From: an uncultured Acidimicrobiaceae bacterium
Lineage (GTDB): Bacteria; Actinomycetota; Acidimicrobiia; Acidimicrobiales; RAAP-2
Direction: 5' to 3'
Length of the DNA stretch: 64,000 nucleotides
Assembly (NCBI GenBank): GCA_963791455.1
Contig: CAWBSM010000003.1
Span: 575,068 to 639,067, forward strand
Of the stretch, positions 20,274-40,548 are shown in pieces. How positions within the stretch are numbered: the stretch's first letter is position 1; the number at the start of each line of letters is the position of its first letter. Position numbers and translations under genes: made by a program. Under the pieces are notes generated by a model, which did not search any database, was not told the origin of the DNA, and saw nothing but the letters and a program-made list of their open reading frames with translations.

Positions 20274-21317
20274 TCACCCATCTGCCTCGCGGCGCGCATC
20301 GCCGGCCCGCCGCCGGTTGGCCTCCCATTGTCCTCGGGTGAAATAGCTCTGGTCCTCGCCCCAGCCTTCGACCCCGTCGTTCCAGCGCCAGTGGACCAAC
20401 GAGTCCCCGCCGTTCCCACGCCAATGTCGGCTCACCGCCTCGCCGCGCACCGACAAGCGGCGGCCGAACTCGTCCACCGCCTCGATCGCGAAGGTCAGCG
20501 GCCAGCCGGTGGCCGGATCGAAAGTGAGCCTGCGCTCCCCGGCCAGGATGTGCCCGTACTCGCCGCCGCGAAGCAGGAACCCGCACGTCACCGGTTCAAC
20601 GTCTGGACGAGGGACGGCGTAGGCCAGCCAGGCCTCGCCCGGCCCCGACGCACAGAAGGAGTAGCCCACGCCGCCGAGGTTGCTCGGTCCGGAACCACTC
20701 TCGCTCGGCCGACGCTTCGGGCGACCCTGAGGCCTTGGTCCCCACGAGCGGTCGCGCACAGAGAAGCAGTCGATCACGACCTCCTCGCCGCGCAGCACCA
20801 TCGTTCCGGTGACGCGGCCCGCCTGGTCGAAATGGGCACCCTTCAGGAAGGGCACGACCCCGGTCGGGTGCGGGTTGGGCGCCATGATCGCCTCGAACTC
20901 GAGTTCCAATTCGAGGCCACCGGGATCTGAATACGTCACGACGTAGCGCGCCAGCGGCTCGAGCACACGCACATGTACGCCGTTCGGCCACTCGAAGTCA
21001 CGCATGTCGCGCTCGAGGCGCGGTGGGAGCTGGAGCCCCGAGTACTCGGCGCGGTACGGCAGCTCCCACTGATAGGACGCGCCGTCATCCCATACCCACG
21101 CCCCGCCGTTGCAGAGGTGCGCGTTGGGCCGGGCTTGACAGTACGTCCAGCCACCGAGCTTGCGCTCGGGCACGTTCCAGGAGAACCAACACGTCTCGGT
21201 CTCCCACCAGCGGTCCGACATCTCTTCGTCGTGGAAGTCATCATCCTCGGGGTGGATGTCCCGGTAGGCGCGCTCGGCCCGACGGAGGTCGAGGTCGACC
21301 CCGAAGAGCTGGCTCAT
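20274..21317 (-). CDS. uncharacterised protein, CrtC/AttH-like (paralog of 32634..33605)
   Basis: Track ORF 20274..21398. ATG 21317 overlaps the kinase stop (ATGA). Sequence: MSQLFGVDLD...RWWETETCWFSWNVPERKLGGW...FSVRDRSWGPR. It is alignable by eye with the product of 32634. Confidence 0.8.
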   Translation of the reverse strand: MSQLFGVDLDLRRAERAYRDIHPEDDDFHDEEMSDRWWETETCWFSWNVPERKLGGWTYCQARPNAHLCNGGAWVWDDGASYQWELPYRAEYSGLQLPPRLERDMRDFEWPNGVHVRVLEPLARYVVTYSDPGGLELELEFEAIMAPNPHPTGVVPFLKGAHFDQAGRVTGTMVLRGEEVVIDCFSVRDRSWGPRPQGRPKRRPSESGSGPSNLGGVGYSFCASGPGEAWLAYAVPRPDVEPVTCGFLLRGGEYGHILAGERRLTFDPATGWPLTFAIEAVDEFGRRLSVRGEAVSRHWRGNGGDSLVHWRWNDGVEGWGEDQSYFTRGQWEANRRRAGDARREADG

Positions 21318-22708
21318 CGCAGGTCCGGCCAGTGCCGGTCCGCTAGCGCCCCCATCGATGGACGGGCCAGCTCCGTCTCTCGGGCGGCGCGACGCCACAG
21401 CGTGCGCAGGTAGTCGTCGTCGCTCACGGTGCCATCCGCGACCCCGGCCGCAACGTCCGCCCTCCCGACGCTGAGCGATTCGGGCCGCCGACCCAACAGC
21501 GCTTCCAGGTCGTCGAGCTCACAGGCATCGTAGAAGGCCCCGTACGTGTCGACCCGCGCCAGGTATTTGACGATGCGAGCGATCCCTTTGCCACGCGCCT
21601 GGGCCAAGGGGTCCGGCGTGCTTGGCACGATGACCTCCCGCAGCTGGGCCAATACGGCCTCGTACATCCAGTCGTGGTCGTACCGGTCGCGGGCCCGAAG
21701 GTCCTCGGCCGGAGTCAGTTCCAGGCCGGAGCCTCGAGCCAGAGCCTCGAGCCAGAGCCGGCGGTGCAGAAGCTGGTAGATGAAGGCATTGCCCAGGTCG
21801 CGTCCGCCGGGGTCTCCGTTGGCGTCGGCCTCGAGCGCGTCGCCCTCGTCCCCGCCACGCCGGTGGGTCATCACCTGGAGCTTCGTCTCGGCCATCACTT
21901 GGTAGTAGTGCACCCGCGCCTCGTCGATGGCGTTGCCCGACAGCTCCTCGTACTCGCGCAGCCGGGTCGGGAAGTCGGGAAACGGCTCCTGGGTCGCCCG
22001 CAGTGACAGCCACGCGATGTCGTCCATGGGGTCACCCAAGTGGGCCAGTTCCCAGTCAACGACGGCAGTGACCCGACCGCCCGAGTACATGAAGTTTCCC
22101 GGCCCGGTGTCGCCCTGCACCAACACGGGCGGCCCGTCGTAAGGAGGAATGTGGCGGCGCAGCCAGCGGAGGGAGAACGCGAGGGCTGGGTCCGGCGTAC
22201 CGCCCCGGTCGGCGAGTACCCGGTCCCACTCGTCGAGCTCCGCGTGCACGGCGTCGGCCACGGTCGTGACCGAAGGGAATGCGGGCAGGCACAACGTAGA
22301 CGCGTGGAGTCCGTGTAGTGCTGCCAACTTCGTCATGAAGTCGCGTGCCGTCGCCTCCCGCTCGGCCGCGTTCGAGATGCGGGAGAACCAGTTCCCCCCG
22401 CCTATCCGTTCGGACAGCATCGCCTGGTGTACCGGGTGCACGCCGAGCACGCGGGGTACCGGAACGGGGCCGTCCTGCAGCGCCAAGTACACCGTGGCCT
22501 CGCGATGCAGTGTCCAGGGGTCCTTCGTCCGAGACGGGTCGGAGCGGTCGTAGCGCAAGAAGCACTGCGACACGGTCCCGTCGGGCCGTTCGAGGTCGAC
22601 GTACCAGGCCTCTTTACGGGCGCCACCGGGCTGGCGGTCGGCCAGCGTTATGCGGCCGCCGCCCACCTCTTCGACCCACGACATGACGTCATCGGGCAGG
22701 GTACTCAC
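21314..22708 (-). CDS. phosphotransferase (APH/choline-kinase fold) with a ~160-aa helical C-terminal extension
   Basis: Has VLVQGDTGPGNFMYSGGRVTAVVDWELAHLGDPMDDIAWL (HxDxxxxN-type loop plus DWE). I prefer GTG 22708 behind ggag. ATG 22684 and the track start 22786 are alternatives. Confidence 0.85.
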   Translation of the reverse strand: MSTLPDDVMSWVEEVGGGRITLADRQPGGARKEAWYVDLERPDGTVSQCFLRYDRSDPSRTKDPWTLHREATVYLALQDGPVPVPRVLGVHPVHQAMLSERIGGGNWFSRISNAAEREATARDFMTKLAALHGLHASTLCLPAFPSVTTVADAVHAELDEWDRVLADRGGTPDPALAFSLRWLRRHIPPYDGPPVLVQGDTGPGNFMYSGGRVTAVVDWELAHLGDPMDDIAWLSLRATQEPFPDFPTRLREYEELSGNAIDEARVHYYQVMAETKLQVMTHRRGGDEGDALEADANGDPGGRDLGNAFIYQLLHRRLWLEALARGSGLELTPAEDLRARDRYDHDWMYEAVLAQLREVIVPSTPDPLAQARGKGIARIVKYLARVDTYGAFYDACELDDLEALLGRRPESLSVGRADVAAGVADGTVSDDDYLRTLWRRAARETELARPSMGALADRHWPDLR

Positions 22709-22736
22709 CCCAACTCCACGGTCCCAAACGACCACG

Positions 22737-24290
22737 TCACACGATGCGCGTCGAGTGGTCGGCCCAGTACTGCTCTCGGAGGACACCCTTGTAGAGCTTC
22801 CCTGTGGGCAAGCGCGGAAGCTCGTCGACGAAATCCACCGTGCGGGGGCACTTGAAGTGGGCGAGATGCTCGCGGCAGAACGCGATGAGCTGACGCTCGA
22901 GGTCCTCGTCGCCCGTCACCCCCTCCACGGGCTGCACGACGGCCTTGACCTCCTCGCCCAGGTCGTCGTTGGGCACGCCGATGACGGCCGCATCGAGGAC
23001 GGCGGGGTGCGTCACCAACAGGTTCTCGGTCTCCTGGGGGTAGATGTTCACCCCGCCCGAGATGATCATGTGCGCCTTGCGGTCGGTCAAAAAGAGATAG
23101 CCGTCCGAGTCCAAGTATCCGACATCGCCGACCGTGCTGGTCTTGCCACCGTCCCGCCTGGAGCTCGCGGTCTTCTCGGGATCACCGAAGTACTCGAAGT
23201 CGGTGGCGCCGGCGAACCAGACCGTCCCGGGAGTGCCGACCGGACACGGGTGACCGTCGTCGTCGAGGATGCGCACCTCGCTGAGGACTCCTCGGCCGAC
23301 GGAGCCCTTGTGCGCCAGCCAGTCCTCGGAGGTGATGAAGGTGGCGCCATTGCCCTCGGTCGCCGCGTAGTACTCCAGCAGGATGGGGCCGAACCACTCG
23401 ATCATCTGTTCCTTCACCGGCACAGGGCACGGCGCGGCGGCGTGGATGATGACCTCCAACGACGACACGTCCGCCGCCGTTCTGACCTCAAGTGGCAGCT
23501 TCAACATGCGGGTGAACATGGTCGGGACGACCTGGGAATGCGTGACCCGGTAGCGGTCCACGAGCTCGAGATACAGCTCCGGGTCGAAGTGCTCCATCAC
23601 GATCACCGTCGACTTCATCCGCAGCGCAATGGCGACGCTGACCTGCGGGGCCGTGTGGTAGAGCGGCGCCGGCGACAGGTACACCATGTTGTCCCGGAAG
23701 CGCCACAACATCGCGACGCCCACGATCCCCATGCTGTTCTCCGCGGGGTGGATGTCGAACATGGGGCGGAGAATGCCTTTGGGTCGCCCCGTCGTCCCCG
23801 ACGAATACATCATGGGGGCACCCAACTGTTCATCCGCCACATGATCCGTTGGCTGTCCTCCGACGACCTCTTCGAACGCTTCGAACGGGCCGCCGGGATC
23901 TCCGTCGGTGTTCGTCATGATCCAGCGTTCCACCTTGGGGCACAGCGCCGGGAGCTGTTGGGCCACCTCCGCCTTGGCCGACGACGTCACGACCACCCGA
24001 GACCGGGAGTCGTTGACGACGTAGGCCACCTCCTCGGCCGAGAGGTACGAGTTGACCGGGGTGAAGTACAACCCCGTACGTTCCGCCCCCGCCTCGGTGA
24101 CCAGCATGGCGGGGTCGTTCTCCATGAAGATCGCCATGTGGTCGTTGCCGCGTAAGCCGGTCTCCCGGACGAGGTGGGCCACCTGGTTGGCCGCCGCCTC
24201 GTACTGGGCGAACGTCAGGACCCGTCCCGAGGGCGCCATGACGATTGCCGGCTGGTCCGGATGCTGCGCCGCGTTTTCAGCTGCGTACAT
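22737..24290 (-). CDS. acyl-CoA synthetase (AMP-binding, FadD-like)
   Basis: Has MMYSSGTTGRPKGI (AMP-binding motif), GDVGYLDSDGYLFLTDRK and PTGKLYK. Confidence 0.93.
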   Translation of the reverse strand: MYAAENAAQHPDQPAIVMAPSGRVLTFAQYEAAANQVAHLVRETGLRGNDHMAIFMENDPAMLVTEAGAERTGLYFTPVNSYLSAEEVAYVVNDSRSRVVVTSSAKAEVAQQLPALCPKVERWIMTNTDGDPGGPFEAFEEVVGGQPTDHVADEQLGAPMMYSSGTTGRPKGILRPMFDIHPAENSMGIVGVAMLWRFRDNMVYLSPAPLYHTAPQVSVAIALRMKSTVIVMEHFDPELYLELVDRYRVTHSQVVPTMFTRMLKLPLEVRTAADVSSLEVIIHAAAPCPVPVKEQMIEWFGPILLEYYAATEGNGATFITSEDWLAHKGSVGRGVLSEVRILDDDGHPCPVGTPGTVWFAGATDFEYFGDPEKTASSRRDGGKTSTVGDVGYLDSDGYLFLTDRKAHMIISGGVNIYPQETENLLVTHPAVLDAAVIGVPNDDLGEEVKAVVQPVEGVTGDEDLERQLIAFCREHLAHFKCPRTVDFVDELPRLPTGKLYKGVLREQYWADHSTRIV

Positions 24291-24299
24291 CGTCGCCCC

Positions 24300-25532
24300 C
24301 TATCTGCGCGCGCCCAAGCACGAGTAGAGCACGTCCACCAGGGAGGCGCCCATGAGCGGGAGCGCCTGGTCCTCCAGGTGATTTCGTACGAAGCCGCAGG
24401 CGACGCGGGCCGCGGGATCGGCGAAGCCGATCTGGCCCCCGGCCCCCAAGTGCCCGAAGGCTCCCTCGTTCGGCCCGTGCATGGGGGGCACACCGGGGAC
24501 GAGCGCCGGCGGTTCGAGCGAGTAGCCGACGGCCCACCGGGTGGGCACGCCCATGACCGCGTCGCGCCCGCACACCTGCTCCGTCCGGAATCGCTCCACG
24601 GAGGCCCGCGACACGAGCTCCTCCCCGGCGGCCAGCGAGGCGTAGACCCGGGCCAGCGCGCGCGCCGTGCCGGTGGCGCCCAAGGCGCCGATCTCGGCGC
24701 CGAGCACGGCGGGGGTATTCATGAAGGTGGCGAAGCGGGGACGGCCCGCCTCGTCGGCGAAGAGGCTCCCGTGCGCCCCGGCCAGGACCGAGCGCCCGGA
24801 CTTCGACGCGGAGTCGATGGCCCCGAGCGCGCTCTCCTTTCCGGGTCGGACCGGGAAGTCCATGACCGTCGCCACGCTCGGGAGCACCGGCGCCGGCGTC
24901 CCGATGGAGCAGGCCACCTCCAACGGCAGCGCGACTTCGGCCTCGAAGAACGAGCCGAGACTCGTGCCACTGATCCGCCGCACCAGCTCCCCCACGAGCC
25001 AGCCGAAGGTCACGCCGTGGTAGCCGTGCCGTGTCCCCGGCTCCCAGGCGGGCGCCGCCGTGGCCAGCACCTCCGCAATGGCCACGGTGTCGTCCCAACC
25101 GCGGCCGTCCCACGACAACAGCTCGTCGGACCCCGGCAGGCCAATGGCACCCGACTGGTGGCTCAGCAACTGGCGCACGGTGGTGTGCTCCTTGCCCGCG
25201 CACCCGAACTCGGGCCAGTAGCGCACGACGGGCGCATCGAGGTCGAGCTCGCCCCTGTCCTCGAGGAGGTGCGCACAGAGCGTCGTGAGCCCCTTGGTCG
25301 ACGACATCACGACCGCCCGGGTGTCCTGGGACCACGTTCGGCCCGAACCGGCCGACCCGGCCCACACGTCGACCACACACTCGCCGTCGACGAAGGCACA
25401 GAACGCGCCACCCCCATCGCCAAGATCGGCACGACGTTCCCGCTCGCCGACCACGATCGACGCCCCGTGCCCCAGCGTCTCGGCCACCCTTTCGAAGCCC
25501 GGCGCAGCGAAACCGCGCACGACCGGGCTCAC
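24300..25532 (-). CDS. serine hydrolase (class C beta-lactamase/EstB-like esterase family)
   Basis: Has VVMSSTKGLTTL (SxxK). The GTG 25532 start overlaps the upstream stop (GTGA). Track ORF is 24300..25583. Confidence 0.88.
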   Translation of the reverse strand: MSPVVRGFAAPGFERVAETLGHGASIVVGERERRADLGDGGGAFCAFVDGECVVDVWAGSAGSGRTWSQDTRAVVMSSTKGLTTLCAHLLEDRGELDLDAPVVRYWPEFGCAGKEHTTVRQLLSHQSGAIGLPGSDELLSWDGRGWDDTVAIAEVLATAAPAWEPGTRHGYHGVTFGWLVGELVRRISGTSLGSFFEAEVALPLEVACSIGTPAPVLPSVATVMDFPVRPGKESALGAIDSASKSGRSVLAGAHGSLFADEAGRPRFATFMNTPAVLGAEIGALGATGTARALARVYASLAAGEELVSRASVERFRTEQVCGRDAVMGVPTRWAVGYSLEPPALVPGVPPMHGPNEGAFGHLGAGGQIGFADPAARVACGFVRNHLEDQALPLMGASLVDVLYSCLGARR

Positions 25533-26539
25533 AAGGCGCGTAGCTCCTGCTCCACCTCGGGCCACCACTCCTTGCGCCACCACGAGACGTTGATCCGGTC
25601 GACCAGCCCGCCGTAACGGGTACGGACCTCACCGGCCAGCCGGTCGGGCGGGCACACGATGGTAAGGGTGTCGAGCACCTCGTCGTCGACGAGGTGCGCC
25701 ATCTCCTCCCAGCGCCCGCTCTTCGAACATGCGTAGAGGTCGCGCTGCAGGTCGCCCCAGCCGTGGAGGTCGAGGACGGGACGGTAGGCGGGGGTCGAGG
25801 CGTAGTAGCCGACCTGGCGGCGCATGGCGTCGCGTGCCTTCTCCGTCTTCGACTCGTCCTCGACCACCGAGATGAAGCCCGGGCACGTCACCTGGACCGC
25901 TCCCCGTTGGCGCCCGGACGTCGCCAGCCCCCGTTCCTGGGCGGGGACGATTACCTCGCGCAGGTAGCGCGCCGAGCAGATGCCGTGTGTGATGACGCCG
26001 TCCGCCACCTCGCCGGCCACCTCGTTCATGCGAGGACCGACGGCGGCCAGGAAGACCCGGGGCGGCCCGAAGGCGTGTGGTCGCGGTGCGAACACCGGGG
26101 TCATCAGCGTGTGGGTGTAGAACTCGCCCTCGAAGTCCGGACCCGCCGCACCGTCGGCGTCGTTCCACGAGGACCAGATGGCACGGAGCGCCAACACGAA
26201 CTCCCGCATCCGCGCCGCGGGGTGCGACCACGTCGAGCTGAAGCGCCGCTCGATGTGCCGTCGCACCTGCGAGCCCATCCCGAGCACCAGCCGACCGCCC
26301 GAGTACTCCTGCAGCTGGTTGGTCGTGTACGCCAGGCTCATCGGGTTCCGGGCGAACGCGATGGCGACGCCGGTGGCGAGCGACACCGAGGACGAGTGCT
26401 CCGCCGCCAGCGTCAGAGACAGGAACGGGTCGTTGGTCGTCTCCGCCACCCACACGCAGTCCAGCCGGGCCGACTCGGCGGCCCCCACCCGGTCGGCCAC
26501 CGACGTGAGCTCGGCCCCGAGGCCGGTATCGATCTTCAC
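25529..26539 (-). CDS. LLM-class, probably F420-dependent oxidoreductase
   Basis: MKIDTGLGAELTSVADRVGAAESARLDCVWVAETTNDPFLSLTLAAEHS...LGMGSQVRRHIERRF. It is a paralog of 49631..50668. Confidence 0.9.
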   Translation of the reverse strand: MKIDTGLGAELTSVADRVGAAESARLDCVWVAETTNDPFLSLTLAAEHSSSVSLATGVAIAFARNPMSLAYTTNQLQEYSGGRLVLGMGSQVRRHIERRFSSTWSHPAARMREFVLALRAIWSSWNDADGAAGPDFEGEFYTHTLMTPVFAPRPHAFGPPRVFLAAVGPRMNEVAGEVADGVITHGICSARYLREVIVPAQERGLATSGRQRGAVQVTCPGFISVVEDESKTEKARDAMRRQVGYYASTPAYRPVLDLHGWGDLQRDLYACSKSGRWEEMAHLVDDEVLDTLTIVCPPDRLAGEVRTRYGGLVDRINVSWWRKEWWPEVEQELRAL

Positions 26540-26549
26540 GGTCTCCCCC

Positions 26550-28712
26550 TCATCGGACCGCCCGCACCCGGCGGCGTACCGGCGCCGGCGTGGGCGCCGG
26601 GCCCTTGACCGCCGGCGCGTCCACCGACAGCGTCAGCGGGATGCCCACCTGTACGAAGCGCCCCGCCGCGGCGTGGTGGTAGCGCCGCAACAGCGCGCGC
26701 GCCACCACCTGGGGATCGTCGGGCACGACGGAGGGATGCAGGCTCACGGCGGCGGGAACGTCCGCTGCCCGCAGTCGCTCCAGCACCGCGTCGACCGCGA
26801 GCGAGCCGACCGCCTCCGCCACTCGCTCCACCGACAGCGACGGACCGACGTCAAGAGCCTGCGCCAGCGCCGCCCGCTGCTCGTCCGTCACGCAGCACAC
26901 CGTCACCCACCCGTCCTTGGCTCGATACAGACGGCATCCCACGGACGGACCGCCCAGATCCGCACCCACCCGGTCGGGCACCGTGCCCGTCGCCGCCAAT
27001 GCCGCCACGTCCTCGGACTGGAACAGCGTCGCCGTCAAGGCCAACGAGGCGTCCACCCCGGTCACCGCCACGCCACGGGCTCGCCCCAACAGCGCCATCA
27101 CGATCCCGGCCGCCAACAGCAACCCGGTGCCGTAGTCGTTGGCCGTGAAGTTGACCGGCACCGCCCGCCGCCCGCCGCCCTGGGTCATCTCCATACCCGT
27201 GGCCGCCTGCACGACGTAGTCGAAGGAGGGCCGGGCCGCCAGCGGCCCCGTCACGCCGAAGCCCTTGGCCCGGGCGTACACCAACGCCGGGTTGACCGCC
27301 CGCAACTGCGCCTCGTCGAGCCCCAGCCGCTCCCACGCACCCGCCAGCGCGTTCTCGACGACGACGTCGGACGCCGCCACGAGGTCGAGCAACCGGGCCC
27401 GGTCCTCGGCCGTCTTGAGGTCGTAGACGAGGCCACGCTTGGAGCGGTTGGCATCGACGTAGATGTTGGGCAGCACCGGCATCAGCTGGAACGAGCCCTC
27501 GCCCCCGGGCGGCTCCACCTTGACGACGTCGGCGCCGAGCTCGGCCAGCAGGCGCGCCGCCAGGGGTCCGGCCCAGAAGCTGGAGAGGTCGACGATGCGG
27601 TGACCGCCGAGCGCGCCCTGCTCCGCCCCGTGCCGGCGGCCGGGCCGCCGTTCGCCGGACGTGGCCTCGACCCGCACCGTTGGACCGACCAACGGGACCC
27701 GCCCGAGCGCGGGGTCCTCCACCTCAACCAGGAGCGCTTCGACACGCGCCTGCTCGTGCGCCAGCCACTCGGCCAGCGTGTTGCACTTGGCGACGGCGGC
27801 GGGCCGTTCGACCAATGCCGCCTCCCATTCGTCGGCCGTCTTGCTCCCGAAGGCGTCGATGAAGCGGGCCAGCATCGTCTTGTTCCACTCGCGGTCCGTC
27901 AACTTCGACAGTCCCTCCGGGCTGGAGTAGTCGAGACCGCCGTCGTCCACGCCGAGCAGGCGGCACAGCTCGCGCCAACGCTCGGTGCCGCTCATGTTCA
28001 CCATCACGGCGCGCCCGTCCGCCGTGTCGAAGACGCGCAAGATGGGCGACTTGGTGTGGCGGACGATGCGGGGCCGGTGACCCTCGCGATGGAAGATCGG
28101 TGCTGCGTTGAGGAAGAGCAGCCCGTCGAGCAGCGACGTCTCGACGTGCTGCCCGAAGCCGGTCGCCTCGCGCTTGACCAGCGCGGCGCCGGCGCCGAGC
28201 ACCGCCAGGAGCGCCGCCGCCACGCTGGCCATGGGAAAGGGAAGCCAGATCGGGTCGTCGCCCGTGAAAAGGCCCTGCTGCGCACCGGCCCGTGCGTGCA
28301 CGAGCGGTTCCCACCCCGGCTCGTCGCGTGAGGGTCCGGTGCTGCCCCAGGCGGAAATGGAGCAGGTGACCAGCCGGGGACGTGTGCTGCGAAGGCCGCC
28401 CGGCCCGGTGCCGAGGCCCAGGCGGTCGAGCGCGCCCGCGCGGAGGTTCTCCACCAACAGGTCGGCCTCGTCGAGGAGGGCGAGTGCCTCCTCGCGGCCC
28501 TCGTCGGCGCGCAGGTCGAGCTCGACCGTCCGCTTGCCCCGGTTCCAGGCGGCGAAGCGGGCGCGGTCAGCCCGCAGCGGGTCCCCACCCGGCCGTTCGA
28601 TCTTGACCACCTCCGCGCCCAGGTCGGCGAGGATCGTCGCGGCCAGAGGTGCGGCGACGTACTGGCCGATCTCCACCACCCGCAGACCCCGCAGCACCGG
28701 CTCAGTGGCCAC
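26550..28712 (-). CDS. tandem-fused family III (CaiB/BaiF) CoA-transferase, two complete domains
   Basis: Domain 1 has LRVVEIGQYVAAPLAATILADLGAEVVKIERPGGDP. Domain 2 has HRIVDLSSFWAGPLAARLLAELGADVVKVEPPGGEG. The start is uncertain: GTG 28712, GTG 28697 or the track start 28769. Confidence 0.9.
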   Translation of the reverse strand: MATEPVLRGLRVVEIGQYVAAPLAATILADLGAEVVKIERPGGDPLRADRARFAAWNRGKRTVELDLRADEGREEALALLDEADLLVENLRAGALDRLGLGTGPGGLRSTRPRLVTCSISAWGSTGPSRDEPGWEPLVHARAGAQQGLFTGDDPIWLPFPMASVAAALLAVLGAGAALVKREATGFGQHVETSLLDGLLFLNAAPIFHREGHRPRIVRHTKSPILRVFDTADGRAVMVNMSGTERWRELCRLLGVDDGGLDYSSPEGLSKLTDREWNKTMLARFIDAFGSKTADEWEAALVERPAAVAKCNTLAEWLAHEQARVEALLVEVEDPALGRVPLVGPTVRVEATSGERRPGRRHGAEQGALGGHRIVDLSSFWAGPLAARLLAELGADVVKVEPPGGEGSFQLMPVLPNIYVDANRSKRGLVYDLKTAEDRARLLDLVAASDVVVENALAGAWERLGLDEAQLRAVNPALVYARAKGFGVTGPLAARPSFDYVVQAATGMEMTQGGGRRAVPVNFTANDYGTGLLLAAGIVMALLGRARGVAVTGVDASLALTATLFQSEDVAALAATGTVPDRVGADLGGPSVGCRLYRAKDGWVTVCCVTDEQRAALAQALDVGPSLSVERVAEAVGSLAVDAVLERLRAADVPAAVSLHPSVVPDDPQVVARALLRRYHHAAAGRFVQVGIPLTLSVDAPAVKGPAPTPAPVRRRVRAVR

Positions 28713-30602: not shown

Positions 30603-30659
30603 CCGTCACAAAACTGCCCCCGGATCACGTTGACTCAGGGACGCACCCATGTTTAGATT

Positions 30660-30673
30660 TTAATGCTCATTAA
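30660..30673. promoter_or_regulatory. perfect palindrome TTAATGctCATTAA, candidate TetR operator in a divergent promoter region
   Basis: It lies in the 102-bp AT-rich spacer between the TetR start (30602, -) and the LLM start (30705, +). It is flanked by the -10-like hexamers TAGATT (plus strand) and TAAAAT (minus strand). Confidence 0.5.
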
Positions 30674-30704
30674 CAAAAGTGCAAGGGTTCCGGGGAGGAA
30701 GGGC

Positions 30705-32578: not shown

Positions 32579-32633
32579 GCCCGGGCCGTCGGTACGCGGG
32601 GCCGCCGCGTTCCGGCTCCGTATCCTGAGCGCG

Positions 32634-33605: not shown

Positions 33606-33642
33606 CGGACAGGGCTGCGGAAGCCGACGCTCCTTCGCGACG

Positions 33643-35112
33643 GTGAGACAGTCCCCCGAGGACCGGGCGCAGTACTACCGCCAGCTGCGCGCCACGGTAT
33701 CGACCGAGTTCCTCCCGGAGCTGACCAGCGCCACCGCCGTCGATGCCGCGGCGCTGGTCGACCGTATCTTGGCCGAGTTCATCGTCGAGGAGGAATGGGC
33801 CGAGGCGGTCAGCAACGAGTACGGGTCTGAGTTCGCTGCGCTGCTCGACGGCGGGAGCGACGAGGGCGGCGTCACGCCCGGCCGGTTCGTCGAGCTCCGC
33901 CAGCAGGCGGCGGACCTGGTCGCGGCGACCTCGGGCAGCGGCGATCCGGCGGCGCGCCAGCTGTGCCGGGACCTGGTGGACGTCGAGCGACGTTTCCTTG
34001 AACGAGTGGACGCGCTCCGTCGCGTGACGCTGGCCGAGGGGCCCGAGCCGGACGCCGCGGCGTCCCCGACCGAGTGCTCGGTGTCGGCCGAGCAGCTGAC
34101 GTCGTACTTCCGGCACAAGTTCCCTGCCTCGCCCGACCTGACGGTGACGGCGGTGGAGGCGGTCCCGGGCGGGCGGTCCAAGGAGACGATTTTGGTCTCG
34201 CTCGAGGGCACCACGGAGCTCCCGCCCGGCGTGATCGTACGCAAGGACCGGCCGATTGGACTGCTCCCCACCAGGGCGGCGGACGAGTTCGCGGTGCTCC
34301 GGGCTGTCTACGAGCACGGGGGCGTCCCCGTGCCGCGCCCATTCTTCGCTGACGAGGTGAAGAACGGGTTGGACGACGCCGACGGCGACGCCGACGGCAC
34401 CTTGCTGGTCATGGAGCGGGTGGCCGGCGGCAAGGCCGGTGAGTACTTCCCCGACCTCGCCGCCCCGACCGAGCACCGACGAGCGCTCGGTGACCAGTTG
34501 GCCGCGGCACTGGGCTGCCTCCACTCCATGCCGCTGGCCGCTTTCAGCGAGACGAACATCGACGTCGTCGCCGCGGTGACGCCGGAGAGCGTGGTTGCGG
34601 CGGTGGAGGGGATGACGGCGCGCATCGGCGAGCTCAGCGGACCGCCCATCGCAGCCGTTTCCCTGGCACGACGGTGGCTGCTCGACCATGTGGCCGACGT
34701 GGCCCCGACCGACAAGCGCTGTCTCCTCTGGGGGGACGTCGGGCTGCACAACATCCTCGTGGACGGGTACCGCATCAGCGCGCTGGTCGACTGGGAGGCC
34801 GCCACGGTCGGTCCCCCGGCGCGCGAGCTCGCCGCGGTGTGGCCCGCGGCCACTGCGCTCATGGAATGGGAGGAGTTCATCGACGCCTACCGTGCGGCTG
34901 GGGGGCCGGCGGAAGCCACCGATCCGTCCGCCGTTGCCTTCTACCGGGTCTTCTTCTGCCTCGGCGCTTGCATGACCAGTCGGACGGGGGGGCACCTCTT
35001 CCGCACCGGGGCCAAACGCGATCTCCTGACGGCGCACTCCGGGCTCGACTCGCAGTTCCGGGCCCAACGCAACCTGGTGCGCGCGTTGCGGGACGTGACG
35101 ACCGACGATTGA
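33643..35112 (+). CDS. phosphotransferase (APH fold) with a ~130-aa helical N-terminal extension
   Basis: Has CLLWGDVGLHNILVDGYRISALVDWEAATVGPPARELA in the C-terminal part and VPGGRSKETILVSL in the N-lobe. GTG start. Confidence 0.85.
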   Translation: MRQSPEDRAQYYRQLRATVSTEFLPELTSATAVDAAALVDRILAEFIVEEEWAEAVSNEYGSEFAALLDGGSDEGGVTPGRFVELRQQAADLVAATSGSGDPAARQLCRDLVDVERRFLERVDALRRVTLAEGPEPDAAASPTECSVSAEQLTSYFRHKFPASPDLTVTAVEAVPGGRSKETILVSLEGTTELPPGVIVRKDRPIGLLPTRAADEFAVLRAVYEHGGVPVPRPFFADEVKNGLDDADGDADGTLLVMERVAGGKAGEYFPDLAAPTEHRRALGDQLAAALGCLHSMPLAAFSETNIDVVAAVTPESVVAAVEGMTARIGELSGPPIAAVSLARRWLLDHVADVAPTDKRCLLWGDVGLHNILVDGYRISALVDWEAATVGPPARELAAVWPAATALMEWEEFIDAYRAAGGPAEATDPSAVAFYRVFFCLGACMTSRTGGHLFRTGAKRDLLTAHSGLDSQFRAQRNLVRALRDVTTDD

Positions 35113-35198
35113 CCCTGGCTGGGTGGATCCCGGTTGCGCCGGGCCTGCCCGTTGGTCTCTCCGGCCCTCGATGATGGCAGCGTGCGACAATCGCTCCC

Positions 35199-35840
35199 GT
35201 GACCGTCACCGAGTCAGGCTGGGCGCGGCGCCGTCACCTGCTCCTGACCACGTACGAGCGGGTCGCCTGGGAGCTGTTCGCGGCTCGTGGCTTCCCGGGC
35301 GTCACGGTGGACGAGATCGCCGAGGCGGCCGGCGTGTCGACCCGCACCCTCTTCCGCTACTTCCCCACCAAGGAGGACCTCCTGCTCGGCTACCCCCGGC
35401 GGGGTGTGGCGGGCTTCGTCGAGATGGTCGCCCAGCTCGAGCCCTGTTCGACGCCCCTCGAAAGGGGATGGCAGCAGGTACGCGACTACTACCTGCAGTT
35501 CCCGCTCGACCCGAAGGTCTTACAACTGTGGCGGCGGGCGGCGGCCGAGGCCCCCGAGGTCCACGCGCGGGTCCGGGGCGAGCGGGCGCACGCCCTGACC
35601 GAGGCCTTCACCGCGTACTGCGCCGCTTGCCTGGGCCTCGATCCCCGTGACGATGTGCGCCCCCGCGTGCTGGCCGGGGTGATCGTCGGAATGGAGTCGT
35701 CGGTCGTCGAACTCTGGGGGAGGTCCCACGTCCCCCTCCGGGAGATTCTCGACGCAGCCGAGCAGTCGGTTCCCGGGCTTCGGAGCGGAGCCGGGGAAGC
35801 GTCAGATGACGCGGGTGCGGCTCTTGCATTTCGTGAGTAG
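35199..35840 (+). CDS. TetR family transcriptional regulator
   Basis: LLLTTYERVAWELFAARGFPGVTVDEIAEAAGVSTRTLFRYFPTKEDL. GTG start with GACAAT 7 nt upstream and no SD. Confidence 0.9.
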   Translation: MTVTESGWARRRHLLLTTYERVAWELFAARGFPGVTVDEIAEAAGVSTRTLFRYFPTKEDLLLGYPRRGVAGFVEMVAQLEPCSTPLERGWQQVRDYYLQFPLDPKVLQLWRRAAAEAPEVHARVRGERAHALTEAFTAYCAACLGLDPRDDVRPRVLAGVIVGMESSVVELWGRSHVPLREILDAAEQSVPGLRSGAGEASDDAGAALAFRE

Positions 35841-35897
35841 GCAAGTAGATTGTCATGAGGTGACGATTTTCTGAGCTGAGCATCGAGGGGTTTCGGC

Positions 35898-37040
35898 ATG
35901 CTGCAAGAAGACGTCCAACTCATTTCGGTCGACGACCACGTGATCGAGCACGAACGGGTCTGGACCGACCGCCTGCCGGCACAATTCAAAGAGGCCGGAC
36001 CTCGTGTCGTCGAGCTCGACGGCGGGAACCAGGCGTGGTCCTTTGAAGGACGGATCGTCCCCACCATCGGGCTCAACGCGGTGGCGGGCAAGGACCCCAA
36101 GGACTTCGGGCTCGACCCGGTCCGCTTCGAGGACATGCTGCCCGGCTGCTACGACGTCAACGCCCGCCTGGTGGACATGGATGTCGACGGCATTTGGGCG
36201 CAGCTGTGCTTTCCGTCGTTTCCGGGCTTCGCCGGCGGCACGCTCTTCGGGGCGGAGGACAAGGAACTGGCCACCGCCTGCGTCCTCGCCTGGAACGACT
36301 TCATCCTCGACGAGTGGACCGCGGCGGCGCCCGAGCGGTTCATCCCGATGGTCCTCGTCCCGTTCTGGGACGTGGCGGCGTCGGTCGCCGAGGTGCAGCG
36401 GACCGCGGCCAAGGGGGCCAAGGCGATCACCTTCAGCGAGGCCCCGCACCGGCTCGGCCTCCCCTCCTTCCACAGCGACCATTGGGATCCCTTCCTGGCC
36501 GCGGCGCAGGACGCCGACATGCCTCTGTGCCTGCACTTCGGCAGCGGTGGCGCCCCCGAGGTCGCGGCGGACGCCAATTTCGCCGTCTCCATCGCGCTGT
36601 TCGGGATGAACTCACAGGCGACCACCATCGACCTGCTCTACTCGCCGGTGTTCCACAAGTTCCCCCGGCTGCGCGTCGCACTGTCCGAGGGCGGGATCGG
36701 CTGGATCCCCTACGTGCTCGAGCGGGCCGACTACACCTGGGAGCGGCACCGCTGGTACACGGGCATCAACACCGAGGTGCGCCCGTCCGATCTCTTCCGG
36801 GACCACGTCTTCGGCTGCTTCATCGCGGACAACGCGGGCATCGAGGAGCGCTCTCTGATCGGCGTAGACAACATCATGTTCGAGGGCGACTATCCCCACA
36901 GCGACAGCAACTTCCCGGCGTCGCGGGCAAAGTTGGCCGGCGTGCTCTCCGGCGTGCCCGACGACGAGGCCCGCAAGATCGCCGAGGACAACGCGCGACG
37001 CGTTTTCAACTTCCCCCGCGTTCGGGGGCGTTCGGGGTGA
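35898..37040 (+). CDS. amidohydrolase-2 (ACMSD-like metal-dependent hydrolase/decarboxylase) family protein
   Basis: Has [38 protein letters not shown] and EGDYPHSDS. Confidence 0.88.
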
Positions 37041-38242
37041 TGCTGCCCTTCTCCGGTGTCCGGGTGCTGGAGGTGGCGGCGTGGACCTTTGTCCCCGCCG
37101 CCGGGGCGGCGATGGCCGATCTGGGGGCCGACGTCATCAAGGTTGAGCCGCCCGCCGGTGATCCCCAGCGCGGGCTCATGAACATGCTCGCCCTCGCCGG
37201 CGGCCCGCCCGTCAACCCCTTCGTAGAGATCCCGAACCGGGGGAAACGAGGCATCACGATCGATCTCTCCACGAGCGGTGGGCGAGCGCTCCTGCTCGAG
37301 ATTGCCGCCACGGCCGACGTCTTCCTGACCAGCTATCTCCCGGCGTCCCGCAAGAGGCTCGGGATCGAGCTGGCCGACCTCCGTGCGGCGAACCCGCAGA
37401 TCATCTACGCGTGCGGGCACGGGTGGGGCGCGAAGGGACCGATGGCCGACACCGGCGGCTTCGACCTCGCCTCGGGGTGGGCATCGGCCTCCATGGCATT
37501 CAAGATGTCGCGCGGTACGGACGAGCCGATGTTCCAACCAGCGGCCTTCTTCGACCTCCAAGGGGCCAACACGATCGCGGGCGCCATCGGCACCGCGCTG
37601 TTCCAGCGAGAGCGCAGCGGCGCCCCGACCGAGATCGACGTCTCCCTCTTGGGCGTCGGCATGTGGACCCTCAGCCCCGACCTTATGGCGGCCCCCTACA
37701 TCGGGTCGATCCGTGCCCCAAATCGGACCGCTGTCCCCAATCCGATCGTCAACTCGTACCCGACGGCGGACGATCGTTGGCTGTACCTGGTCTGCTTGCA
37801 GGCGGACCGCTTCTGGGGTGAGCTGTGCGAGGTGATCGGTCGCCCGGACCTCACAAAGGATGAGCGGTTCGCCGACATGTCGGCGCGGGCACAGAACGCC
37901 GAGACGTGCGTGGCCGAGCTCGAGGCGACGTTCCGCACGAAGACCCTCGCGCAGTGGAGGGAACAGCTGGACTCGTTCAGCGGTGTGTGGGCGCCTGTGC
38001 TGCACCCGGCCGAGGTGCACGACCAGGTGCAGGTCGCGGCCAACGGGTACCTCCCCGAGGTGACGTCAAACGATGGCACGGTCTTCCGCCTCCCGGCGCC
38101 CCCCATGCAATTCGGCGGGGTGGCCCCGGTCCCGCGCGGTCCCGCACCTGAGCACGGACAGCACACCGAGGAGATCTTGCTCGAGCTGGGCCGAGATTGG
38201 GAGGCCATCGGGGAGCTCCGGGCCTCCGGGGCCCTCGGCTAG
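37040..38242 (+). CDS. family III (CaiB/BaiF) CoA-transferase
   Basis: This is the last 400 codons of track ORF 36194..38242. ATG 37040 overlaps the upstream TGA. Sequence: [45 protein letters not shown]. Confidence 0.9.
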
Positions 38243-38282
38243 GAAGGGCGAGGACACCCGTCGCGCCTCGACGAATGGACGA

Positions 38283-38423
38283 ATGGGAGACGACATGATC
38301 GAGACGGGGCAGCTGGGGTCGGCCCGTCCCTCGGAGGAACAGGGTCCCGGCTGGGGCAACCCCTTCGACGGGATCGGTCGGCCGGACGCGTTCGGCGGAA
38401 ACAAGCGAGAGAGTGGGAGCTGA
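38283..38423 (+). CDS. possible 46-codon small ORF between the CoA-transferase and the SDR
   Basis: MGDDMIETGQLGSARPSEEQGPGWGNPFDGIGRPDAFGGNKRESGS. About 80% of third codon positions are G/C. It stops 3 nt before the SDR start. There is no homology evidence. Confidence 0.2.
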   Translation: MGDDMIETGQLGSARPSEEQGPGWGNPFDGIGRPDAFGGNKRESGS

Positions 38424-38426
38424 CCG

Positions 38427-39137
38427 ATGGGGCTTCTCGAGGGGAAGGTGGCGGTCGTCTCCGGTGCGTCGGCCGGGTCCGGGCTCGGCGTCGTCAGGCG
38501 ATTTCTCGACGAGGGCGCCAACGTGGTCATGCTGGCGCGCAACAAGGAGCGTTTGGAAGAGGTCGCGGGGGGATTGGGTGAACGCGCCATCCCCGTCGCC
38601 ACCGATGTCGGCGACTCCGAGAGCGTGCGCGCCGCTTTTGAAGAGGTGACGCGGCGGTTCGGCAAGCTCGACGTGTTGGTCAATCACGCCGCGGTCTACC
38701 GCCCGTGTGCGGTCGAGCATCTCAGCGACGACGACATCCAACGGCAGCTCGCCACCAATTTGCTCGGCCCGGTGTACATGTCGCGGGCCGCCATCCCGTT
38801 GCTGCGGGCGGCCGGCGGCGGCGACATCATCAACACGTCGAGCGAGTCGACACTGCACCCGTTTCCCATGCTCTCGATGTACGTGGCCAGCAAGGCCGCA
38901 CTCGAGGCGTTCGGTGTCGTCCTGGCCCAAGAGGTGCGCGACGACGACATCAGGGTCACCACCGTTGTCCAGGGGACAGCCCAAGGGGCCGGGGTCGGAT
39001 CGACCGACTGGGAGTGGGACCCGGACCACGCCGCCGCAGCCCTGCAGCGCTGGACCGAGCTCGGACTGATGAACCACGCCATGGGGCGCTACGGAGACAG
39101 GAGGTGGAGGCCATCGGCGACGTCCACCTCTTCATAG
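38427..39137 (+). CDS. SDR-family oxidoreductase, apparently frameshifted near its 3' end (intact reading would end at 39190)
   Basis: Has KVAVVSGASAGSGLG and YVASKAALEAF. After ...LMNHAMG the frame decays, while the -1 frame reads ALRRQEVEAIGDVHLFIVTRPRTQKLDVVYCRSF*, a typical SDR C-terminus. The switch is at the G4 run 39083..39086. Confidence 0.8.
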   Translation: MGLLEGKVAVVSGASAGSGLGVVRRFLDEGANVVMLARNKERLEEVAGGLGERAIPVATDVGDSESVRAAFEEVTRRFGKLDVLVNHAAVYRPCAVEHLSDDDIQRQLATNLLGPVYMSRAAIPLLRAAGGGDIINTSSESTLHPFPMLSMYVASKAALEAFGVVLAQEVRDDDIRVTTVVQGTAQGAGVGSTDWEWDPDHAAAALQRWTELGLMNHAMGRYGDRRWRPSATSTSS

Positions 39138-39221
39138 TCACCCGCCCGCGGACTCAGAAGTTGGACGTCGTGTACTGCCGTAGCTTTTGACCGAAGAGAA
39201 CGACCCGAACGAGAGGAGCGT

Positions 39222-40430
39222 ATGACCTCGACCCCGGCGGGCACCGACCTGTACTACGACCCCTACGATTTCGACATCGACGACGACCCGTACCCGGTTT
39301 GGAAGAGACTGCGTGACGAGGCGCCGCTCTATTACAACGAGCAGCACGACTTCTGGGCCCTCAGCCGGTTCGAGGACGTCCGGCGCGGCCTGGCCGACTG
39401 GAAGACCTACATCTCGGGGAAGGGGTCTGTCCTCGAGCTGATCAAGAGCGGGATGGAGATCCCGCCGGGCTCCATTCTCTTCGAGGACCCGCCCGCCCAC
39501 GACGAGCACCGGAGCCTCCTGAGCCGGGTCTTCACGCCGAGGGCGATGAACGCGATCGAGCCCGAGGTGCGTCGCTTCTGCGCCCGGACGCTCGACCCCC
39601 TGGTCGGCACCGGACACTTCGACTTCATCCACGACTTGGCCGCCGAGATGCCCATGCGCGTCATCGGCATGCTCTTGGGCATCCCCGAGGAGGACCAAGA
39701 GGCGATCCGGGACCGCCTCGACGCCACCTTGCGCCTCGAGGAAGGGAGCGCGCCCAACCAGCCCCAGGAGGGCCTCGGAGCCGTCGGTGGCGAGGGGTTC
39801 GCCGAGTACATCGAGTGGCGGGCCGAGCACCCATCCAACGACCTGATGACGAAGCTGATCCACGCGGAGTTCGTCGACACGACGGGCACTACCCGGACCC
39901 TGACCCGCGAGGAGATACTGGGCTACGTGGGCCTGCTGGCGGGAGCCGGCAACGAGACAACGACGCGGCTCATCGGCTGGGCCGGCAAGCTCCTGGCCGA
40001 GCACCCCGACCAGCGCCGCGAGCTCGCTGAGGACTCGAGCCTGATTCCCAGTGCCATCGAGGAGCTCCTGCGTTATGAGGCGCCCTCACCGGTCCAGGCG
40101 AGGTTCGTGACCAAGGACGTCGAGCATCACGGCCAGACCGTGCCGGCGGGGAGCGTGCTGGTGCTCATGAACGGCGCCGCCAACCGGGACGAGCGCACGT
40201 TCCCCGAACCGGACCGCTTCGACATCCACCGGACGTTCGACCAGCACCTCTCGTTCGGCTACGGCATCCACTTCTGTCTGGGCAGCCACCTGGCCCGCCT
40301 CGAAGGCCGCATCGCCCTCGAGGAGGTCCTGCAGCGGTTCCCCACCTGGGAGGTGGACTGGGACCATGCGGTCCAGGCCCACACGTCGACGGTGCGGGGA
40401 TGGGAGCGCCTGCCCGTCTCGGTGCCCTGA
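39222..40430 (+). CDS. cytochrome P450
   Basis: Has FGYGIHFCLGSHLAR (heme Cys loop), AGNETT (I-helix) and EELLRYE (ExxR). Confidence 0.95.
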   Translation: MTSTPAGTDLYYDPYDFDIDDDPYPVWKRLRDEAPLYYNEQHDFWALSRFEDVRRGLADWKTYISGKGSVLELIKSGMEIPPGSILFEDPPAHDEHRSLLSRVFTPRAMNAIEPEVRRFCARTLDPLVGTGHFDFIHDLAAEMPMRVIGMLLGIPEEDQEAIRDRLDATLRLEEGSAPNQPQEGLGAVGGEGFAEYIEWRAEHPSNDLMTKLIHAEFVDTTGTTRTLTREEILGYVGLLAGAGNETTTRLIGWAGKLLAEHPDQRRELAEDSSLIPSAIEELLRYEAPSPVQARFVTKDVEHHGQTVPAGSVLVLMNGAANRDERTFPEPDRFDIHRTFDQHLSFGYGIHFCLGSHLARLEGRIALEEVLQRFPTWEVDWDHAVQAHTSTVRGWERLPVSVP

Positions 40431-40482: not shown

Positions 40483-40548
40483 ATCTGTTGTCGAACCAGT
40501 GAGAATTGTCTCTGCCCTGCCAGCCCTTTCCCGAAATGTTGCGATATG

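Follow-up and report, generated by a model that had tools for sequence, protein, structure and literature searches.

Why would a bacterium keep the same unusual gene pair, a kinase of the aminoglycoside phosphotransferase (APH) fold and a protein of unassigned function, in each of two divergent operons for acyl-CoA metabolism? The question is raised by positions 20274 to 40430 of a 64,000-nucleotide stretch of contig CAWBSM010000003.1 from an uncultured Acidimicrobiaceae bacterium; we refer to the whole stretch as the window. Eight genes of a minus arm (M1–M8) and nine of a plus arm (P1–P9) diverge there from a common spacer (Table 1), the kinases being M7 and P4 and their partners M8 and P3. 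A first-pass annotation of the sequence had called the partners CrtC/AttH-like unknowns and had proposed that the kinases phosphorylate a hydroxyl, after which the phosphate is eliminated. It had considered this chemistry undescribed, with LvaAB/LvaC of Pseudomonas putida or mammalian ACAD10/ACAD11 as the nearest systems. We think it probable that the pairs are two ancient paralogous 'ATP-dependent dehydratase' modules, each made up of a kinase and a phosphate lyase, in a TetR-controlled catabolic island, whose substrate would be a hydroxylated carboxylic acid that the pathway processes as its coenzyme A (CoA) thioester.

The kinase partners resemble a phosphate lyase

A precedent for such a module exists in Sterolibacterium denitrificans, in which 25-hydroxysteroid kinase (25-HSK) and 25-phosphosteroid lyase (25-PSL) together dehydrate a tertiary alcohol at the expense of ATP (PMC8449060, PMC7411048, PMC11061730). 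25-HSK belongs to the phosphotransferase family, phosphorylates tertiary C25 alcohols and works with a separate C–O lyase; homologues of up to 46% identity occur in Actinobacteria (PMC8449060, PMC11061730).

In Pfam, the two unknowns, M8 and P3, are DUF7065/DUF7064 proteins; these were their only families, and neither protein matched CrtC or Lipocalin_9. Searched as single sequences, M8 and P3 had no significant match in the PDB. From an alignment of 85 sequences that covered both subfamilies and included P3, AlphaFold2 modelled M8 with a pLDDT of 92 and a pTM of 0.90. When this model was compared with the PDB using Foldseek, the top five chains were all 25-PSL (entries 9g4c, 9fzn and 9g2i), with E values of 2.6e-14 to 3.9e-13 and TM scores of 0.62–0.65, followed by AttH (2e-8), kievitone hydratase (1e-7) and fungal [4+2] cyclases/pericyclases (to 1e-4). 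At the level of sequence, 25-PSL was the only significant match of a profile of both subfamilies among PDB sequences (E = 1.6e-5). The profile of the M8 subfamily alone detected a 25-PSL fragment with 19.7 bits, and DUF7065 was the sole Pfam match of that fragment.

The similarity includes a sharply conserved motif. The stretch lsvRDrsWGpRplG of the family profile aligned with LGSRDRSWGVRPVG of 25-PSL, in a block that ends in RDRSWGxRP, and R188, D189, W192, G193 and R195 (M8 numbering) are invariant across both subfamilies. Structure 9g4c, deposited under the title 'lyase + phosphate + desmost-1,4-diene-3-one', carries RNRSWG, an Asp-to-Asn change relative to the wild type at the motif aspartate. 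Going by this deposited variant only, the aspartate may be a catalytic residue.

Because the partner is a relative of 25-PSL, which works together with 25-HSK, the DUF7065/DUF7064 protein is most likely, and most simply, the eliminating enzyme itself. We infer lyase activity for M8 from its structural model and, more weakly, for P3 from its sequence. Phosphorylation of a hydroxyl followed by elimination of the phosphate is thus the best-supported chemistry, given the 25-PSL-like partner, the grouping of the kinases and the adjacency of the genes described below. By contrast, the idea that the chemistry is undescribed was not supported: the partner relates to 25-PSL in both structure and sequence, and a kinase with a separate lyase is already known. 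The locus most likely uses a variant of this described trick and no new kind of chemistry.

When grouped at 50% identity, members of the lyase family form about 1,900 clusters. M8 and P3 scored 52 and 34.7 bits, respectively, against the NCBIfam model of the Rv3169 family (NF053593; cut-off 150), as relatives that fall outside the curated family. We found no kinase–lyase fusion protein among 150 family representatives; the long matches that had looked like candidates were frameshifted open reading frames (P0374 and P0437) or spurious (P0474). P0474 is a 5,799-residue serine/aspartate-rich repeat protein with 41 stretches matching the lyase profile; its repeats look like those of cadherins or adhesins, and the match seems spurious. 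A literature search on DUF7065/DUF7064 and 25-PSL returned nothing beyond the three papers on the Sterolibacterium enzymes cited above.

The kinase–lyase pair is conserved in two subfamilies

The first-pass annotation had described the arms as partly mirrored. Both arms do contain the same gene pair, but a recent mirror duplication is not what produced them: M8 and P3 are only about 23% identical (BLASTP E = 0.027), M7 and P4 27–29% identical, and the order of the pair is inverted, with the kinase preceding the lyase on the minus arm and the lyase preceding the kinase on the plus arm. Identities as low as these indicate that M8/P3 and M7/P4 are ancient paralogues.

To follow the pairs across genomes, we sampled 80 species-representative genome loci with an M8 orthologue. 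The close homologues came from metagenome-assembled genomes of uncultured Acidimicrobiaceae and Acidimicrobiales from soil and peat. A kinase gene lay directly upstream of the M8 orthologue in 58 of 72 loci, including 40 of 43 at 70% identity or more and 18 of 21 at 58–70%. For P3 and P4, adjacency was seen in 15 of 16 loci; the remaining one failed solely on the distance threshold. Since two subfamilies, about 23% and 28% identity apart, have each kept this partnership, there is strong evidence from gene order that the kinase and its DUF7065/DUF7064 neighbour are functionally coupled.

The wider layout is also conserved. The full M1–M8 arm kept its gene order in at least 31 of the 57 species-level loci with enough upstream flank, P1 stood divergently beside M1 in every related locus with sufficient flank to show it, and the complete divergent arrangement was present in four loci (L001, L085, L086 and L087). 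Because the minus arm is colinear in so many species and P1 is divergent beside M1, the layout is more than chance. In 50 of 66 loci, a cytochrome P450 gene lay no more than 5.5 kb downstream of M8; recurrent neighbours of family members, including those without a kinase, are a P450, a FadD-type ligase and an ABC transporter of the LivK type.

That the kinase and the unknown form a real pair, as the first-pass annotation had suspected, is also seen where the context has changed. In L003 the neighbours of the pair are two acyl-CoA dehydrogenases (ACADs), a MaoC-like hydratase, two enoyl-CoA hydratases (ECHs), a CoA ligase, a P450 and an aldehyde dehydrogenase (ALDH); L004 has two pairs, one of which adjoins thiolase/DUF35 genes. 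In L043–L050 the two pairs share a strand, about 7 kb from each other, and the unit of TetR, luciferase-like monooxygenase (LLM) and acetoacetate-decarboxylase-like (ADC-like) genes is 8–10 kb off. An apparent LLM–ADC fusion in L004 (1–1848, called as a 637-residue 'LLM') was rejected as an assembly frameshift, the middle of its translation being out of frame.

The kinases group with ACAD11 and Rv3168

Both kinases retain an intact GDxxxxN and DWE, as GDTGPGN...DWE in M7 (22049–22114) and GDVGLHN...DWE in P4 (about 34732–34797); a 464-residue protein identical to M7 is present in the database. In PDB searches with single sequences, Rv3168 (3ATS/3ATT; PMC3691515) was the best match of both M7 and P4 (P4 against 3ats, E = 6.1e-10), and the second best was 9fsg for M7 and ACAD11 for P4. 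A profile of the kinase family matched the ACAD11 kinase domain (8v3v, 1.2e-17), 3dxp (1.2e-15), 9fsg (2.1e-15) and Rv3168 (3ats, 2.3e-15), and reached macrolide, hygromycin and aminoglycoside kinases only from 1e-8 or weaker. The catalytic aspartate of the profile aligned with that of ACAD11, for which 8v3u is the Asp-to-Ala kinase-dead variant (PMC12440821). The entry 9fsg, an 'aminoglycoside phosphotransferase-like protein', is about 29% identical over 130 residues; it is only a candidate for 25-HSK, and no paper that cites the entry was found. By sequence profile, M7 and P4 thus group with ACAD11, Rv3168, 3DXP and 9FSG and not with antibiotic kinases, in agreement with the earlier view of them as kinases of the ACAD10/11 type. 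ACAD11, 3dxp, 9fsg and Rv3168 are nearly equal in score, which gives M7 and P4 no placement inside that group.

It is very improbable that M7 and P4 are aminoglycoside or macrolide resistance phosphotransferases, or other xenobiotic kinases, that merely happen to sit in a region of lipid metabolism. Both belong to Pfam APH, and the original description of Rv3168 made it a putative enzyme of aminoglycoside resistance (PMC3691515). However, the NCBIfam resistance models scored 20–41 bits against cut-offs of 205–550 (APH_3p 40.6 and 20.4 bits, cut-off 205; MphA 21, cut-off 550; Cph 19, cut-off 390), the antibiotic kinases in the PDB matched at least seven orders of magnitude less well than the ACAD11/Rv3168 group, and the kinase genes are translationally coupled inside catabolic operons.

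The resemblance to ACAD11 raises another possibility, which we consider unlikely, namely that the kinases phosphorylate 4-hydroxyacyl-CoAs as in the LvaA and ACAD10/11 systems, that the ACAD M2 eliminates the phosphate and that the DUF7065/DUF7064 proteins perform some other step, such as hydrating or isomerizing the double bond. The ACAD11 kinase domain was the single best PDB match of the kinase profile, the CoA ligase M6 is encoded immediately upstream of M7, M2 belongs to the same operon, and ACADs are often found near the pair in other genomes. LvaA and ACAD10/11 act on CoA esters (PMC12440821), and they share with this locus an APH-fold kinase, a phosphorylation and elimination to a double bond that is predicted here, and a nearby CoA ligase and short-chain dehydrogenase/reductase (SDR). 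In those systems, however, the eliminating enzyme is an ACAD-family flavoprotein that is fused to the kinase or co-encoded with it (PMC12440821), whereas the constant neighbour of the kinases here is the 25-PSL-like beta-barrel protein, whose closest relative is a genuine phosphate lyase, the motif of which it retains. M2 lies five genes away from M7 and resembles PimC-type dehydrogenases, the P1–P4 core has no ACAD, and we saw neither a kinase–ACAD fusion nor a small partner like LvaB. The nearly equal scores within the kinase group also give the Lva type no edge.

Each kinase carries an extra helical domain of about 170–175 residues, at the C terminus in M7 (within 21314–22190) and at the N terminus in P4 (33643–34170), and both extensions are encoded on the side that faces the lyase gene. 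Sequence comparison of the extensions gave a hint of homology that falls short of significance (BLAST E = 0.068; hhalign E = 0.025, probability 2%).

Evidence that weighs against a kinase–lyase module

Several observations count against our preferred reading of the pairs as kinase–lyase modules. M8 is only about 15% identical to 25-PSL, and the sequence match spans about 90 residues. The P3 subfamily alone scored only 11.5 bits against the 25-PSL fragment, which is under significance although the alignment is in register, so the assignment of P3 as a lyase is drawn from its Pfam family and its motif. A strict regular expression for the motif matched only 60 of 104 full-length family representatives. 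Among M8-like genes below about 58% identity, none of eight loci had an adjacent kinase, and the kinase and lyase of Sterolibacterium are encoded by unlinked genes (PMC8449060). An AlphaFold2 model of M7, made from a shallow alignment, had a pLDDT of 70 with the catalytic region below 50; Foldseek returned only generic APH and protein-kinase matches, with 9fsg unlisted, and a model this poor says nothing about the kinase subfamily or the C-terminal extension. Finally, the fold of the M8 model is also that of hydratases (CrtC and kievitone hydratase) and pericyclases, and a different reaction on the M8/P3 scaffold is possible.

The last point can be put as an explanation in its own right: the DUF7065/DUF7064 proteins could work without ATP, as hydratases or cyclases of the CrtC, kievitone hydratase or pericyclase kind, with the kinases serving salvage, regulation or detoxification. 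A double lipocalin-like beta-barrel for hydrophobic substrates is indeed common to CrtC (the carotenoid 1,2-hydratase), AttH, kievitone hydratase, the fungal [4+2] cyclases and, as modelled, M8, and distant members of the family occur without a nearby kinase. We nevertheless regard this explanation as improbable. Those folds matched the M8 model at least six orders of magnitude less well than 25-PSL did (2e-8 to 1e-4 as against 2.6e-14), the Pfam CrtC family is not matched and the 25-PSL motif is conserved. Moreover, enzymes of the CrtC/AttH group need no ATP or kinase, whereas kinase adjacency, which amounts to a 4-nucleotide overlap of M7 and M8, is kept here in two independent subfamilies.

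The likely substrate is not a sterol

The closeness to 25-PSL in structure and sequence invites a stricter reading, in which M7/M8 and P4/P3 are true functional orthologues of 25-HSK and 25-PSL that degrade a sterol or secosteroid side chain with a tertiary C25 hydroxyl, a P450 having replaced the molybdenum C25 hydroxylase. The pairs in L003 and L004, which lie amid P450, ALDH, CoA ligase, paired ACAD, MaoC-like hydratase and thiolase/DUF35 genes, follow something like the logic of sterol side-chain degradation, and P9 is similar to the vitamin D3 25-hydroxylase (3a4g, 1.6e-62). The likeness of P9 was rejected as evidence on the substrate: its best PDB match was 5vws (3.4e-66), dozens of CYP107-like enzymes score alike, and its gene belongs to an accessory cassette that relatives lack (see below). 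Furthermore, no steroid-ring, Mce-type transporter, or molybdenum hydroxylase/molybdopterin oxidoreductase genes were found among the 54 open reading frames scanned in the window (about 55 likely genes), which argues against the same pathway as in Sterolibacterium but not against the same mechanism. With an identity to 25-PSL of only about 15%, and with a recurrent LivK-type ABC transporter that suits small soluble acids, we have downgraded the sterol explanation and give it little probability.

The systems share some features and differ in others. Like 25-HSK and 25-PSL, the locus combines a non-antibiotic APH-type kinase with a separate predicted lyase that, in the M8 model, has the same fold, and it keeps the RDRSWGxRP motif with its aspartate; CoA ligase, alcohol/aldehyde oxidation and beta-oxidation genes are associated with both. 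Unlike the Sterolibacterium genes, those studied here are adjacent and make up two divergent pairs in a single locus, the kinases have additional helical domains, no molybdenum C25/C26 hydroxylase was found in the window, the host is of an aerobic type, and the substrate is probably a smaller acid or CoA ester.

The modules are surrounded by a ligase, an ACAD, CoA-transferases, two luciferase-like oxidoreductases, an esterase, an ADC-like protein and a P450/SDR/(lost) ALDH cassette. Because of these neighbours, we suppose that the substrate is a soluble hydroxylated carboxylic acid, probably branched or terpenoid-like, that is handled as a CoA ester, and not a sterol. The rest of the window is rich in genes for acyl-CoA and lipid metabolism, including an ECH, a fused ACAD, a thioesterase, SDRs, hydrolases, LLMs, PhyH, CoA ligases and the LivK-type ABC importer. 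The importer is encoded at 40506–46427 (Peripla_BP_6, a fused permease-ATPase of about 940 residues, and an ATPase) and recurs in L001, L087 and L074. It stands beside a DUF7065-family gene even in a distant locus without a kinase, and it is possibly the uptake system for the substrate.

A proposed route for dead-end alcohols

In the kinase–lyase reading that we prefer, M7 or P4 would phosphorylate a hydroxyl that is refractory to ordinary oxidation or beta-oxidation, most likely that of a tertiary alcohol. The adjacent M8 or P3, predicted lyases of the AttH/CrtC-type double beta-barrel with the conserved RD(R/H)SWGxR motif, would then eliminate the phosphate and leave a C=C bond. One scheme that would accommodate the neighbouring genes begins with the oxygenase P1 and the esterase M5, which would open a ketone, lactone or ester and so expose a non-oxidizable hydroxyl. 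M6 would form the CoA ester, the kinase and lyase would turn the alcohol into an alkene, and M4, M2 and M3 would pass the product to beta-oxidation. We infer the order of these steps, the nature of the substrate and repression by M1; phosphorylation may fall on either the free acid or the CoA ester.

A more far-reaching version of the same idea, which we put forward only tentatively, is that the pair is a widespread mobile 'ATP-dependent dehydratase cassette' of actinobacteria that includes Rv3168–Rv3169, and that the two cassettes of this locus have specialized on hydroxyacyl-CoA thioesters and not on free sterols. They would then form part of an undescribed aerobic route that merges the handling of CoA esters known from ACAD10/11 with elimination of the 25-PSL type. 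Such a route could generate tertiary alcohols when ketones or lactones of terpenoid or branched-chain type are opened by a luciferase-like oxygenase, of the Baeyer–Villiger or epoxidase type, together with the serine esterase.

A conserved control region separates the arms

Both arms were expected from the first-pass annotation to share one control region, and the spacer between them has its marks. The promoter-like site of the plus arm is the only match in 30400–30900, where 0.0 were expected, and one of three in 20 kb. In an alignment of the spacers of 42 species, the -35 element reads CGTTGAC with an invariant GTTGA core, and the -10 element is conserved as TAGATT or TAAAGT. The palindrome that follows it lies across the point where transcription of the plus arm would be expected to begin; its consensus, TTAAT-N4-ATTAAC-AAA, is conserved in the 42 species, even where the TetR/LLM/ADC unit is apart from the kinase–lyase pairs. 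An inverted-repeat tool found nothing in the spacer at its length threshold, and the 6+2+6 palindrome was spotted by eye and is supported by its conservation. On this comparative evidence the spacer is a real control region, and the palindrome is a candidate operator of M1. Through TTAATG-CT-CATTAA, M1 would probably repress the plus-arm promoter as well as its own arm until the substrate or an intermediate binds to it.

Gene content of the arms and their surroundings

Genes were called by GC content at the third codon position (GC3) and translated, and domains were assigned by Pfam and NCBIfam scans. This procedure reproduced the earlier list of 17 genes gene for gene, together with its coordinates, its ATGA/GTGA overlaps, the minus-arm gaps of at most 30 nucleotides and the length of the spacer. 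The GC content is about 70% in the window and 69.6% in the region.

Table 1. Features of the two arms, their control region and the lyase motifs, with positions in the window
Feature	Position	Strand	Basis
M1, TetR-family regulator, first gene of the minus arm	29919-30602	-	Pfam TetR_N
M2, acyl-CoA dehydrogenase, PimC-large-like	28702-29922	-	Pfam ACAD N, M and C domains; NCBIfam pimC_large 222 bits, under cut-off
M3, fused tandem family III CoA-transferase	26550-28769	-	Pfam CoA_transf_3 x2; all NCBIfam CoA-transferase models under cut-offs
M4, F420-dependent LLM-class oxidoreductase	25529-26539	-	NCBIfam TIGR03617 424 bits, over cut-off 278
M5, beta-lactamase-fold serine esterase, LipL/EstB-like	24300-25532	-	Pfam Beta-lactamase; NCBIfam EstBLacLipLMycb 200 bits, under cut-off
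M6, FadD4-like acyl-CoA synthetase	22737-24290	-	Pfam AMP-binding and AMP-binding_C; NCBIfam ligase_FadD4 619 bits, under cut-off 850
M7, APH-fold kinase, predicted alcohol kinase, helical C-terminal extension of ~175 residues	21314-22708	-	Pfam APH
M8, DUF7065/DUF7064 protein, predicted phosphate-eliminating lyase (25-PSL-like)	20274-21317	-	Pfam DUF7065 and DUF7064
RDRSWGPR motif of M8 (R188-R195), aligned with 25-PSL RDRSWGVR	20733-20756	-	translation and alignment
Shared control region, 102 bp, 52% GC (region 69.6%)	30603-30704	.	phylogenetic footprint, 42 species
Promoter-like site of the plus arm: TTGACT, 18 nt, TAGATT	30630-30659	+	consensus match
Palindrome TTAATG-CT-CATTAA (TTAATGCTCATTAA), candidate TetR (M1) operator	30660-30673	.	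directly 3' of the -10 element
P1, FMN-type luciferase-like monooxygenase (LLM)	30705-31820	+	Pfam Bac_luciferase
P2, acetoacetate-decarboxylase-like (ADC-like) protein	31820-32578	+	Pfam ADC 33.8 bits, cut-off 29.8
P3, second DUF7065/DUF7064 protein, predicted phosphate lyase	32634-33605	+	Pfam DUF7065 73.5 bits, DUF7064 30.3 bits
RDHSWGVR motif of P3	33126-33149	+	translation
P4, APH-fold kinase, N-terminal extension of ~170 residues	33643-35112	+	Pfam APH
P5, second TetR regulator	35199-35840	+	Pfam TetR_N
P6, Amidohydro_2-family metal hydrolase or decarboxylase	35898-37040	+	Pfam
P7, family III CoA-transferase	37040-38242	+	Pfam, NCBIfam
Remnant of the 3' end of an ALDH gene (former 'micro-ORF')	38298-38408	+	tblastn with the L085 ALDH
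P8, short-chain dehydrogenase/reductase (SDR)	38427-39137	+	Pfam adh_short
P9, cytochrome P450, CYP107-like	39222-40430	+	Pfam p450
Terminator-like hairpin 3' of the P450 gene	40464-40481	+	consensus match only

On the minus arm, start and stop codons overlap as ATGA at 29919–22, GTGA at 25529–32 and ATGA at 21314–17, and the remaining intergenic gaps are 9, 10 and 28 nucleotides. The start codon of M3 is uncertain (28769, 28712 or 28697), and the M2/M3 junction varies with the choice. On the plus arm, the start of P2 overlaps the stop of P1 (TGATG); P2 had no NCBIfam match and no sequence relative in the PDB. The best PDB relative of P1 was the FMN-dependent RslO1 (7bip, 4.4e-38), followed by alkanal monooxygenases of the LuxA type (PMC8093152). 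P1 is the most conserved gene of the locus, 92–98% identical across species compared with 72–90% for its neighbours, an unusually strong constraint.

The plus arm has a composite structure. P4 has the Peripla_BP_6 gene (position 40506 of the window) as its immediate downstream neighbour in L001 and L087, whereas in the closer relatives L085 and L086 a block of TetR, Amidohydro_2, CoA-transferase, ALDH, SDR and P450 genes is inserted between the two. The relatives without the P5–P9 cassette are 76–79% identical. Its presence in L085 and L086 and its absence from L001 and L087 indicate that P5–P9 is an accessory cassette with a TetR regulator of its own (P5). Consequently, the plus arm is not the single co-evolving ten-gene operon that had been proposed: only P1–P4, the LLM–ADC–lyase–kinase core, travels with the divergent promoter.

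The 'micro-ORF' of the plus arm is a remnant of the cassette's ALDH gene. Lying in the 184-nucleotide gap 38243–38426, it matches residues 447–483 of the 507-residue L085 ALDH (57% identity, E = 1.5e-6). On either side, the flanking DNA can be aligned with that of L085 across a gap of about 1.4 kb; L085 is 88% identical and has the intact gene at 15643–17166. This alignment indicates that about 1.4 kb of the ALDH gene has been deleted here and that the remnant is a pseudogene.

Beyond the arms, the end of the minus arm is abutted by an HNH endonuclease/DUF222 gene (17110–18228) and an Nramp transporter gene (18450–20267) at a site where most relatives have a P450, which suggests a local rearrangement beside a mobile-type gene (17110–20267). 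On the minus strand, 47488–51443 encodes a CoA ligase, a 101-residue open reading frame, a luciferase-like oxidoreductase and a PhyH-family (phytanoyl-CoA dioxygenase-like) protein, a group with a branched-lipid flavour. A 718-residue protein encoded at 2544–4700 has ACAD domains in the order N, C, M, which suggests a fused two-subunit acyl-CoA dehydrogenase. Two open reading frames with high GC3, 9877–11190 and 10901–11839 (minus strand), overlap by about 290 nucleotides; the second encodes an alpha/beta hydrolase.

Implications for Rv3168–Rv3169 and the DUF7065/DUF7064 family

A TetR regulator, an APH-fold kinase and a DUF7065/DUF7064-related protein are also found side by side in Mycobacterium tuberculosis, where the TetR protein Rv3167c represses the adjacent Rv3168–Rv3169 operon, which is strongly derepressed in a hyper-virulent Rv3167c mutant (PMC5340868). 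Rv3168 is, as noted, the best single-sequence PDB match of both kinases. Unlike the present locus, the M. tuberculosis operon is a bare pair of genes, with no CoA-thioester genes, and is annotated with a putative aminoglycoside kinase; M8 and P3, for their part, fall under the cut-off of the Rv3169 family.

Organisms that degrade terpenoids, sterols and branched lipids face a classic obstacle in tertiary and other 'dead-end' alcohols. To our knowledge, the kinase-plus-lyase solution has so far been shown only in one anaerobic betaproteobacterium, and for sterols. Our comparison finds the lyase family tightly and repeatedly paired with kinases of the ACAD11/Rv3168 type in Actinomycetota, within acyl-CoA catabolic operons, and, judged by sequence, kinase–lyase dehydratase cassettes appear to be common in this phylum. 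The results suggest a concrete and testable function for Pfam DUF7065/DUF7064 and for M. tuberculosis Rv3168–Rv3169, long annotated as a putative aminoglycoside kinase and a hypothetical protein, and they point to the abundant Acidimicrobiaceae of soil as users of kinase–lyase chemistry.

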